Positions 12,258 to 15,962 of a stretch of 64,000 nt of DNA are shown in pieces (the first letter of the stretch is position 1; each line of letters begins with the position of its first letter). Below the pieces are notes generated by a model. That model was not told the origin of the DNA. It saw nothing but the letters and a program-made list of their open reading frames with translations, and searched no databases. The stretch covers positions 124,001-188,000 of the forward strand of contig NW_026865261.1 in the NCBI RefSeq assembly GCF_026571515.1. The letters are read 5' to 3'. Both the position numbers and the translations under genes were made by a program. This DNA is from Ruditapes philippinarum. Lineage: Eukaryota.

Positions 12258-15200
12258 GAATGTGCCAATAATTCAAATAGTAGCTTGTCATGCACACAAT
12301 GTTGCAACTCTGACATTTGCAATTCGGAAGGATGTGGTGAAGCAGGTATATGTTTTTGATATATAATTTCTTTAAAATTGATTTTTGTTATATAATCTCA
12401 GCATAAAAAACCAATCATCAAACTTATTGAACTCATTAAAAATGGCATTTTAATGCTCTTCCAATTATTTCTACTTATGTATCATTTTAGTGATTAGCCT
12501 GTCCGTGATCTACTTTTTGCCCTGTCCTGTTTTTGTTTGGGATCCTTATGGTCTCCTTGCCACTGGTTGTTGTTGCTGGGTCGTGTTGGGGTTGCGTTCA
12601 TTGAACGCCGCCTTTCCTTGTCGATCTTGTTTATCATATTCCAAGCATTCACTTAAAAAATAATAACATCATACACACAAATATCTGTTTTTAACTCACT
12701 TACTTTTATTTAAGGTTACCCTGTTTCCAGAGGGCCAATATGCTACAATTGTCCAGTATACAGAGATACATCCACATGCCATGATATTGACTTCTGCAAA
12801 ATCGGAGAGGTATTCTTTTATTACAATTAGTTTTCACGCCATTCCCTTCTTAAAGTTTATTCAACGGCGGCCTTTTCCATTTTTTGATAAATTATTACGG
12901 TAGTGGTATTCATTATTCAGTTATCATTCACTTATCAAGGAACAGCATCCTCTTAACGTATGTCTTTATACCGGTTCAACAAAAACTGGACAAAAAGCTT
13001 TTAATAACCATTAACTTTGCTGGCGACAACAGATTTTACCCATGCTTTAATGACGATTGACATGGGTTACACTGTCAGCTATTCAGTAGGTACATTTCTT
13101 TTAGTATTAGTATTCGGTTTAAAGAACTACATGTTTTAACTTAAGTTAAACAAATCTTGTGAGTGGTTTACTTAAAAGCAGAACTGTAATAGGCATATAG
13201 TGTTAATGTTATTGCTTTTGACAGGTATGCATGTTCCAGGAAACGAGGGAATTTGGAGATAGAGTTCTGAATGCTAAATGTGCCAATCCACATGTAAGAA
13301 ATGACTTCATAGAATGTTTGTACTCATACATAATTGTTTAAATTTATGTTATACGATTTCTATAATGGTATGCTTATTAACAATTTTCCTAATCTTGTTT
13401 TACTTATAATTTTTGAACGTGTAAAAAAGCAAAATAATGTTAGATGTGTGGTGCACATGTTCACCCGTTATTGACTGGATGCTTATGTGCGTTTATGAAA
13501 GTTAGAGTTATTATTAATTAATTAACAACAGCTAATTATAAAGTTATTTGTTTATGTACAAGACGCTCTAGCCTGCTAGTAAACGTTATAATTTAGTATG
13601 CAACCTTTTTGTTATTTGTTATATCGGATTTGGATAACAGTTATACACCAAAAGCACATAGCTATGTAATTTCTGTCTTTATTATATAGTGCACATTTTT
13701 ATATAAGGTACAAACCTTTCGCGAGATGTTGTCGTTGTTGTTGTTGTTTTTAATCGATGTTGTATTTCATATAAACACTTTGTTTTTAATCATTGAATTG
13801 ATAACAGTAAAATGTTGCTTTATAAAATTGTCTGTAAAAGATGTTTATTTTGATAAGGAATTTGACAATTAATATAAAGCTTATTGTATGGGCTTATAAT
13901 AATTTGAAGATTTGCTCGAGAACAGCCGGGGCGAGTATAATTGGAAGGAGAGCAGAAAGCAAACAAATTGATGCTCGTACATCGGAACAGCATGTTTGTA
14001 ACGCATGCTGCAAGTGTGATCTTTGCAACAAAAACTGCCGGGTCGCACACAATGAAAGTGATAATTCAGGTCAGTACTACATGCATTATCATTTATTTTA
14101 TAACCTATACAGGTTAAGTCTATGTATTTTGTTACATAATCTAACGACAAATAAATAGGTTAATCATGATCACAAGAACGTTCCATAATTACTTTAATAA
14201 CTAAGGCATAATAAATATTTGATAACCTAAAACCGCAAATTTTGAATATTACTCTCTGTAATTATCTCCTTTTTTTAGAAATATCCCAAATTTCAATAAT
14301 TATTATAATAGTAATAATTATTGTGATTATTATTCTACTTAATTAAAATGCTGAATACGATCAACGTGTGTTTGTTTTGAACTGTGATCTAATCACAAGA
14401 AGTTGCTAAAACTCGTCATCAACATCATTTAAAAAAGGACGCGCTGTTTAATTTACCATAATTGGCGACGCCGTAGAGCGGCCTCCTCTCTTATGGAATG
14501 CTTTTTATTTTGGCCTATGGAAGGGGCTGTTATTATTAGCAGTGAATGCAACATTGTGTTAATTAATTTTATTTTGATTAGTAAAAATCAAGTATATGTT
14601 GTTATATTTGTATTTAATAACTTTATGTAAAAGCATGTGCATTGTGATATTATTTTCACGAAATTACAGGCTCAGTTTAACAGCTTGTTGTCTTAATGTT
14701 TCATTGGTGAGCAATGAATTCCTGTGGAGAAGAGTTTAAGAAAATTGTGTGCACCCAAACGAGATGTTAACTTAACCATTGAATTCAAATATGTCCTTAG
14801 GCTGTGTTAATTGAAAATGGTCCTTCTGTGTCTTCTTTATATAATACCTTAAAGAAAACATATTAAATATCTTACGTGTACCTTCGAAAGATTTATAGTA
14901 CATTTAATCATTAGGATAATAAGTTTAATTTATGTGTGAAATATCACTTTTTTGCAGTTGAGACGACACATACAGCATCTGTTCCAAGTACAGACACTAC
15001 CACTGCAACGACTAGAACATCACTACGAACAAATGCAACGATAAATAACGTGTCAGAATCGACGACAGGTTCTAGTCTACAAACTACGTACCCTATTATA
15101 CAGACAACCGTAATAAATGGAAACAGAATTCTTGCTATTTTTGGATCTGACATGGTACAATACATTCGTTTCAATATAACGCGGGTCGTTCGGGGCCAAG

Positions 15201-15962
15201 ATTGGGAATACAAAGACCAGGTTTGGACATTTTTGTACAGTATTTTAGCAGTTCTTATCTTAAGCTTATCCATTGTTTCGTTCCTAAATGTATTTAGAAT
15301 AACATTGAACATTTTAAAAAAAAGTTCATAATAAGACAAATGGGAATTACAGTTTGTATGGTTTATTGTGGTTTTTACGTCGGTGTCAGCAAAACATTTG
15401 TTTGTGAACGTGCGAAACCAACCTGCTTTCGGCATAGCTTACCAGTAATTACAGATCTCTAACGACAACATTTCCGACATGACACAATATTTAACTGTGA
15501 AAGAAATTTACAAAGAGACTTGTATCTGAGGATTGAACCAAATTATCATATAACTGTAAATTTAGTAATATTATCATTGATTTTGTAAGATGGTGTTGTT
15601 TTCAATGGTGTATAACACTGCATACAATGAAATCTTTCATTGCCTTACTTTATTTAATAACATGTTTAATTTTCTCATTCATTTTAAACAAAAGGATATA
15701 TAATCTGGTGTATTATTTATTCGTAAGAAAGTCCTGAAGACTGTAAAATTTAATGACTTTATTTTAGTATTTACACTTTCAGACAAGATTAATGATATTA
15801 GTTTTTTTGTATTTTTTTTAAAAGGACTCACATGGACAAGGAACCGTTCTTCGGCAATATAGTCTTCCAATGTGGGTCTGGGTTAAGTGGGACAATGGGA
15901 ACGAGAACTCTTATAGAGTTGGCGCGGCTGGAAAATACGACCTTTATATCGTTTCGATTTGA
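12258..15962 (+). CDS. LU-1: tandem Ly6/uPAR-like domains + Thr-rich linker + MIB/HERC2 domain (3' six exons, 270 aa in frame)
   Basis: Phase-compatible GT-AG exons: 12258-12345 (ECANN..CTQCCNSDICNSEGC), 12715-12809 (RGPICYNC..), 13225-13293 (VCMF..KCANPH), 13910-14069 (ICS..IIGRR..CNACCKCDLCNKNC), 14958-15220 (Thr-rich..RVVRGQDWEYKDQ), 15825-15962 (DSHGQGTV..VWVKWDNGNENSYRVGAAGKYDLYIVSI*). Confidence 0.85.

Follow-up and report, generated by a model that had tools for sequence, protein, structure and literature searches.

A MIB/HERC2 barrel spliced to tandem LU domains in Ruditapes philippinarum: an expressed gene whose intact form is probably extracellular

The MIB/HERC2 domain is best described in the ubiquitin ligases MIB1/MIB2, HERC2 and HECTD1 (PDB 4xi6, 2dk3, 3dkm). 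According to the available parts of PMC11701565, PMC5345843 and PMC11887331, the MIB1 domains are SH3-like substrate-recognition modules; the available part of PMC3673628 describes the domain as promiscuous among HECT ligases, and those of PMC13748646, PMC11277162 and PMC2394772 merely name it. Here we describe a gene in which such a barrel follows two LU (Ly6/uPAR, three-finger) domains, located in a 64,000-nucleotide stretch of Ruditapes philippinarum (contig NW_026865261.1, positions 124,001 to 188,000; hereafter the window, to whose positions all coordinates refer). The gene is an expressed, conserved fusion with a true MIB/HERC2 domain, it is not an E3 ligase, and it is a variant of the molluscan proteins that combine LU domains with a binding head. 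The clam barrel carries the same motif residues as the ligase domains, is likewise an SH3-like barrel, and scores above the Pfam cut-off. Unlike MIB1/2, HERC2 and HECTD1, the clam protein has no RING, HECT, ZZ or ankyrin parts; a signal-like N-terminus, LU domains and a mucin-like stalk precede its barrel, which is strongly variable within the species.

Mollusc proteins joining LU to C1q, fibrinogen, Ig and MAM domains were described in silico in 2026 (PMC13719153, available parts). Like the clam protein, they combine a secreted-type LU front end with a binding domain, and our profile recovered the same heads and more. The clam head differs in coming from a cytosolic protein family; neither MIB nor HERC2 is mentioned in the available main text of that paper, whose supplements may list such proteins. 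A bivalve-expanded 'Mib-herc2' orthogroup (OG314, 15.1 genes per bivalve versus 0.4 in other molluscs) is labelled 'protein ubiquitination' in PMC8382680; it is an expansion of the same domain, and the available text does not mention secretion. For the tandem LU part, the best Foldseek rows are uPAR, and the multi-LU matches comprise uPAR, C4.4A, CD177 and TEX101. These four are glycosylphosphatidylinositol (GPI)-anchored, whereas the intact clam copies have no membrane stretch and no GPI-like hydrophobic tail, carry 12 cysteines per LU domain (LU domains usually hold 10) and end in a C-terminal head.

The presence of a MIB/HERC2 domain is taken to indicate a ubiquitin ligase, a label that automatic annotation also places on secreted-looking proteins. 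Models of the gene and its kin are XP_060570047.1 and XP_060596611.1 (Ruditapes), LOC123542716 (Mercenaria), LOC127870934 and XP_052248325.1 (Dreissena), XP_052791386.1 (Mya) and KAL4222501.1 (Mactra). They are named 'uncharacterized', 'mucin-5AC-like' or 'E3 ubiquitin-protein ligase HTD1', and several have the Pfam domain on record. No study of these models was found in the literature, nor any paper on a secreted MIB/HERC2 domain, in searches that could not take the slash spelling as an exact phrase and that did not cover most subscription journals. The gene models are thus already in databases; what is new is the concentration of variation in the barrel among clam copies. The part of the gene present in the window comprises the following features.

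12258–12345, plus strand: exon 4, end of the first LU domain (LU-1) with the CCxxxxCN signature (model and contig splicing)
12715–12809, plus strand: exon 5, start of the second LU domain (LU-2; model and contig splicing)
13225–13293, plus strand: exon 6, middle of LU-2 (model and contig splicing)
13910–14069, plus strand: exon 7, LU-2 loop with Gly-Arg-Arg (possible convertase site) and end of LU-2; phase-1 donor
14958–15220, plus strand: exon 8, Ser/Thr-rich stalk (45% Ser+Thr), conserved 26-residue lead-in and first 13 residues of MIB/HERC2
15221–15824, plus strand: intron 8, phase 0, within MIB/HERC2 (contig splicing)
15825–15962, plus strand: exon 9, remainder of MIB/HERC2 and stop; the most variable coding part
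15963–16344, plus strand: 3' untranslated region with AATAAA at 16339 and an inferred end; contig cover extends to 16150 or beyond

The sequence-only reading had proposed that splicing 15220 to 15825 yields a MIB/HERC2 domain, and this was borne out by both the Pfam profile and transcript-type contigs. The first 13 domain residues lie at the 3' end of exon 8 before a GT donor and match profile positions 2–15; exon 9 follows an AG acceptor directly and by itself scores 39.2 bits (E = 6.6e-10). The 604-nucleotide intron between them splits the domain between Gln and Asp. The six window exons, joined by script, equal the RefSeq model XP_060570047.1 (Ruditapes philippinarum) from residue 5 onward. 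In this model MIB_HERC2 (PF06701) scores 52.5 bits (E = 4.8e-14), above the gathering cut-off of 33.5, and the three other clam copies score 49.6–52.6 bits. With phmmer, XP_060570047.1 matched HECTD1 and MIB1 structures (E = 5e-12 to 3e-11). Word-index protein searches using the short domain returned P0001 as the sole match. The reading frame ends immediately after the barrel, and no RING, HECT or ZZ domain was found by Pfam in P0001–P0006.

Joining of the last exon to the LU exons was likewise confirmed. In contigs of all four runs used for splicing (X1, X5, X8 and X10, from four studies; record type labelled 'RNA?'), every intron from 12345 to 15825, five in total, is skipped at GT..AG, and contig cover inside intron 8 is zero in the same four runs. 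A single 1220-nucleotide X1 contig spans exons 7 (end of LU-2), 8 (linker) and 9 (barrel) with 0, 0 and 2 differences, respectively. All four runs have G at position 15902, which changes Asn to Lys at a variable barrel column. The transcript-type contigs and the orthologues rule out a chance match or a mis-joined model. At 14015–14017 the window's copy has an extra cysteine in place of the Arg of the other three proteins; over exon 7 the X1 contig equals the window. Raw reads of four runs (2026; examined over 500–16400) were dominated by repeats and gave no information on splicing or expression. Two of them, X23 and X24, had nearly no exon cover. Runs X21 and X22 are recorded as RNA, yet they look like proximity-ligation DNA because they show GATC-type joints and genome-like cover.

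The window's copy lacks its 5' end. The signal exon of LU-1 had been read as damaged; alignment to the intact copy on contig C6187 of the same assembly showed instead that it is absent, along with the next two exons.

10395–10612, plus strand: double-deletion junction; exons 1–2 (signal peptide, start of LU-1) and exon 3 lost, leaving only intron remnants (alignment to G000:C6187)
10612–11930, plus strand: young repeated element in intron 3; its 378-codon frame resembles the 3' end of a long interspersed nuclear element (LINE; copies on other contigs)

Relative to C6187, a deletion of ~940 nucleotides takes exons 1–2 and one of ~230 nucleotides takes exon 3, so that no signal peptide can be made by the window's copy. 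DNA of exons 1–2 occurs in the assembly on C6187 only. The N stretch at 4528–4809 was ruled out as the cause of the loss, lying 5.6 kb upstream of flanks that still align to the intact copy. In the X1 contig, 460 nucleotides lie 5' of 13910; exons 4–6 account for 252 and the remaining 208, whose letters themselves were not displayed, fit the 207 coding nucleotides of exons 1–3. The X5 contig has a loose end before 12258 in which 28 of 30 letters match the end of exon 3. Because of this length fit and this match, transcription is likely for an intact form that is almost identical to the window gene in its 3' part. The window's copy is either a deletion allele or an assembly fault; at a locus with such a transcribed intact form, it is likely an allele that is dead or whose product is not secreted. 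The 1.3 kb element at 10612–11930 has near-full-length copies, 98–99% identical, on eight other contigs and was probably active recently, judging from these copies. It looks LINE-like; its frame gave a weak Pfam zf-RVT match (E = 0.17).

The intact protein was characterized from longer clustered sequences of 338–341 residues, namely XP_060596611.1 (P0003, encoded on C6187) and the Logan proteins P0001 and P0004. Compared with the window model, these copies have an extra hydrophobic N-terminus and the first two thirds of LU-1. A simple hydrophobicity rule detected a hydrophobic N-terminus in P0001, P0003, P0004, P0005 and P0006 and none in the window's copy; the best 9-mer of the intact copies reached 2.9–3.0. 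The layout is a signal-like peptide, LU-1, LU-2, a 55-residue Thr-rich stalk (42–45% Ser+Thr) that is predicted to be glycosylated, the 26-residue lead-in and a cysteine-free barrel. All 24 cysteines lie outside the barrel, and both LU domains have a cysteine pattern ending in CCxxxxCN. Against Pfam UPAR_LY6 (cut-off 24.8), the intact clam copies scored 16.8–19.4 bits, the window's model gave no match, and Mactra P0021 reached 31 bits.

In an AlphaFold model built with 70 sequences, both LU domains are predicted as three-finger folds, and the predicted local distance difference test score (pLDDT) exceeds 90 at most positions of the LU pair. Predicted LU-1 aligned with GPIHBP1 (Z 10.8, root-mean-square deviation (rmsd) 2.3, 76 aligned) and LU-2 with Lypd6b (Z 8.5, rmsd 3.3, 86 aligned). 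The predicted barrel (model residues 280–337) matched MIB1 4xi6 residues 154–219 (Z 5.9, rmsd 2.4 Å, 57 aligned), 2dk3 (Z 4.9) and, in Foldseek, 3dkm (probability 1.00, E = 8e-3). These structural Z values are middling, and the MIB/HERC2 assignment is carried by the sequence matches. A G[KR][KR] motif occurs in the LU-2 loop in 47 of 71 LU-2 segments of the family; convertase cutting at the Gly-Arg-Arg loop is a guess. A second basic site lies ~10 residues past Gly-Arg-Arg in the long LU-2 loop of exon 13910–14069.

A profile built from six LU-LU-MIB proteins gave 2501 matches at E ≤ 0.001, of which the best 150 were examined. A search of other genomes for signal peptide, LU and MIB/HERC2 in one protein had been suggested as a check; among these best 150 of 2501 matches, LU joined to MIB was found in five other bivalve genera. 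Eight proteins carry LU and MIB (Mercenaria 1, Dreissena 2, Mya 1, Mactra 3, Potamilus 1), six of which passed the signal rule. The barrel of P0157 was detected solely by the in-house profile, and the Mya protein has nine barrels by that profile and eight by Pfam at 1e-5. The 70 LU-bearing matches scanned, mostly longer, most often carried fibrinogen (19), IgGFc-binding (10), C-type lectin (6) or Ig (3) domains. Rarer partners in the same slot were C1q (2), SUEL lectin, CUB and MAM (1 each), EGF only (2) and TSP1 only (2); two had LU only, and 21 of the 70 showed no domain at 1e-8. ESM Atlas, which covers clusters of at least 50, contained LU clusters and MIB clusters and none with both.

The sequence-only reading placed an extracellular MIB/HERC2 domain in the slot that ShKT occupies in four neighbouring genes. 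Part of this stands, since extracellular use is very likely and exon 8 and the ShK-like exons of all four neighbours are entered at a phase-1 intron after LU-2. The slot itself is a general head slot rather than an ShK slot, because fibrinogen, C1q, lectin, IgGFc-binding, EGF and other domains occupy it in relatives. A local exchange of ShK for MIB was ruled out, as the neighbours are not the closest kin: their LU exons are 38–41% identical to those of the window gene, versus 59–65% for genes on contig C14413. A paralogue at G000:C9238:163550-174164 (L018–L019) encodes LU-LU, ShK module(s), Thr linkers and four MIB barrels, and its signal exon would fall beyond the contig end. Its ShK module scores 23.7 bits, above the ShKT (PF01549) cut-off of 20.9, and the gene is likely the counterpart of Mya P0014 and Mactra P0021.

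Differences among the four clam copies are concentrated in the barrel. In pairwise comparisons, 14–21 of 57–58 barrel residues differ, against 3–9 of 127 in the LU part, 11–16 of 59 in the stalk and 1–2 of 26 in the lead-in. Twenty-six of 60 barrel columns vary, several with three or four residues, and 34 are fixed, including the motif residues; no stop or frameshift was seen in the barrel of any of the four. Between the window and C6187, the proportion of nonsynonymous differences (pN) was 0.22 in the barrel, versus 0.013 in LU (p = 1.5e-12) and a difference of 0.10 in introns (p = 1.2e-4). DNA divergence was 4–12% over exons 4–8, rose to 21–25% at 15801–16400 and fell to 8% at 16701–17000; intron 8 differed by 14.5% and the 3' flank by 23%. 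C6187 may be the other haplotype, because HERC2 and MIB1, expected as single genes, appear twice in the assembly at 6–7% difference. Two other such pairs differ by 3% and 9%, and a fifth, at 24% over one block, looks paralogous. No third DNA copy was found in the metagenome contigs searched. Both HERC2 copies (G000:C8738 and C11235; L055, L043) have frameshifts in their MIB exons, which points to small indel errors in the assembly.

The phase-0 intron between Gln and Asp offers a lead on the origin of the barrel. The same site is found in HERC2 of the Ruditapes genome (identified by a CPH/Cul7 domain downstream on the same strand), in three of the four C9238 barrels and in B-box/MIB genes on C9267 and C5269; in domains of HECTD1 and of the Mind bomb type, the intron lies elsewhere or is lacking. 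A 29-row tree of the 57-residue barrel set the Mind bomb-type domains apart from the HERC2/HECTD1, B-box and secreted ones (95/93). For this tree, several domains were joined by the nearest acceptor or read without an intron, and MIB1's second domain and several partial matches were left out. Derivation from a HERC2-type exon pair is accordingly offered as a lead, not a result, and the secreted barrels of bivalves may have one origin or several. The B-box genes, at G000:C9267:1765-14544 (L024–L025) and G000:C5269:2099-31399 (L020–L023), stand in tandem, three per contig, and combine a B-box and coiled coil with a C-terminal MIB/HERC2 domain. They are TRIM-like, with no RING seen; TRIM proteins hold a target-binding domain at the position of this barrel. 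Further repeated-MIB/HERC2 genes, with a different intron site, lie on G000:C14834, C12001, C3369, C4150, C1726, C15588, C670 and C15128.

Use of the intact protein outside the cell appears very likely, because the domain is real and joined to LU, the intact copies and orthologues have a signal-like N-terminus, and no ligase domain is present. On balance, we lean towards the barrel being a variable recognition head that would grip foreign proteins in mucus or haemolymph, borne on a secreted LU-LU protein. This proposal is based on the company the barrel keeps in its slot, the pattern of variation and the SH3-like substrate-recognition role of the MIB1 barrels. In such a protein the LU pair would form a constant front end, perhaps cut at the basic loop and common to a family with many interchangeable heads, and the Thr-rich stalk would keep the head away from it. 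The barrel, possibly derived from a HERC2-type exon pair, would retain the peptide-binding role known from Mind bomb, where the MIB1 domain binds the Jagged/Delta N-box, and bind short stretches of foreign proteins; old divergent versions may have been kept since each would bind different ligands.

Several observations weigh against this proposal. Signal peptides were called by the hydrophobicity rule (Kyte-Doolittle, best 9-mer) rather than by a trained predictor, and the barrel is only moderately modelled, with pLDDT of 61–86 over most of it and 40 in the tail. The proportion of synonymous differences (pS) in the barrel is 0.28, pN is not above it (p = 0.52) and the ratio of the corresponding rates (dN/dS) is 0.73; these values therefore do not demonstrate positive selection. 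These DNA-level values come from two sequences, the window and C6187, whose flanks do not align past 18107, and the four copies may be either alleles or paralogues. A joint peak of silent and replacement differences around one exon fits long-kept alleles, and gene conversion between paralogues gives it too. The picture of a front end with a head is not universal, because the LU pair stands behind the IgGFc-binding domain in 4 of 10 proteins with that domain. As for origin, most forks of a 69-row barrel tree did not resolve, pairwise identity singles out no donor, and the intron may have been gained at the shared site in parallel.

We consider it rather unlikely that the protein is secreted with a barrel that recognises the clam's own proteins, either in gamete or tissue compatibility or in cross-linking a mucus, shell or adhesive matrix. 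High polymorphism would also suit self/non-self or gamete recognition, and paralogues with 3–9 barrels on mucin-like linkers (P0014, P0021) would suit multivalent cross-linking. The other heads of the family, however, are classic pattern-recognition domains, and a purely structural role does not predict a 25–36% difference between copies of one species.

A sugar or cell-wall polymer as the ligand of the recognition head seems improbable to us, although the barrel occupies the position of lectin heads, is rich in Trp and Tyr, and is borne by bacteria on lipoprotein-like exported proteins. Bacterial SH3b domains bind the cell wall, which we count in favour of a sugar ligand. The strong allele variation fits protein ligands better, and no ligand other than a peptide, the N-box of Notch ligands, has been characterised for this type of domain (PMC11887331, available part).

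Equally little probability is assigned to non-adaptive variation, whether by loose constraint or in paralogues where gene conversion homogenised the 5' parts, with the barrel as a passive spacer or stabiliser. The dN/dS below 1, the parallel divergence of synonymous sites, intron 8 and 3' flank, and the broken state of the window's copy would all agree with it; the fixed barrel columns and intact frames of the four copies would not, nor would retention of the fusion from Unionida to Venerida with the barrel multiplied up to nine times. A cytosolic ubiquitin-pathway adaptor, as the automatic names imply, is highly improbable: the MIB/HERC2 domains characterised to date are all cytosolic, no signal peptide is present in the window's model and cytosolic-type B-box/MIB genes share its intron site, but the intact copies combine signal-like N-termini with 24 cysteines in disulphide-type folds, RING, HECT and ZZ domains are missing, and relatives have EGF and ShK partners.

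If these barrels do act outside the cell, the 'protein ubiquitination' reading of the bivalve expansion given in the available text of PMC8382680 needs a recount. The head is small, cysteine-free and easily expressed, and at least four natural versions exist in one farmed clam, so that diversification of bivalve recognition becomes directly testable. For disease studies the locus is also a candidate marker, both of presence/absence and of alleles. Specialists may be surprised by a cytosolic docking domain that is found outside the cell, recurs in distant lineages and varies within one species; the function proposed here is read from sequence, and the window's copy is broken.

Exported MIB/HERC2 domains are, as far as domain composition indicates, not unique to the window gene. 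Among 24 MIB-bearing profile matches scanned (from the best 150 of 2501; database gene models only), three animal models without LU look extracellular. Sardine P0018 (Sardina) is DMBT1-like, with four barrels between SRCR domains and a membrane helix; HERC2-like flanks are kept, and the barrels are nearest HERC2 (24–26 of 39–40 residues). Sponge P0069 (Sycon) is a MAM/SRCR/LDLa membrane protein with four barrels, and thrips P0086 (Frankliniella) is an LDLa protein with three. In bacterial genomes, 8 of 112 MIB/HERC2 pattern matches were confirmed (L077–L084); two of these proteins, from Myxococcota and Polyangiaceae bins, have starts that by eye resemble lipoprotein signals and score 53–56 bits. 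Bacterial-looking MIB/HERC2 proteins were also seen in P0042, P0044, P0057, P0077 and P0080. Such proteins include a Ser/Thr kinase, whose three barrels lie beyond a membrane helix, and a protein with a caspase domain.

A wider view can be put forward tentatively, and as a whole we find it doubtful. MIB/HERC2 would be an overlooked extracellular scaffold, captured independently from ubiquitin ligases in bivalves, a fish, a sponge and an insect, and some bacteria would export it. In clams it would form a hypervariable, balanced-polymorphic antigen-binding head on secreted modular receptors, and a TRIM-like family would use the barrel inside the cell.

Four neighbouring genes downstream in the window have the LU-LU layout with an ShK-like module.

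19064–23933, plus strand: neighbour B, signal exon, LU-LU and ShK-like module; LU-2 start exon with an in-frame stop
27243–35716, minus strand: neighbour C, LU-LU and ShK-like module (signal exon not located)
40352–48094, minus strand: neighbour D, LU-LU and ShK-like module (signal exon not located)
53391–59566, minus strand: neighbour E, LU-LU and ShK-like module (signal exon not located)

The six-cysteine ShK spacing is present in all four modules, and one of the four gave a Pfam ShKT match, at 10.9 bits (cut-off 20.9). The LU-2 start exon of neighbour B (21870–21975) looks frameshifted, reflecting a decayed gene or an assembly error. More LU-LU genes were seen on G000:C14413, C10064, C11118, C14937 and C4634, followed on four of these five contigs by EGF repeats or fibrinogen-type exons. 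The end of the window (62400–64000) is a GC-richer tandem repeat with long minus-strand open frames.

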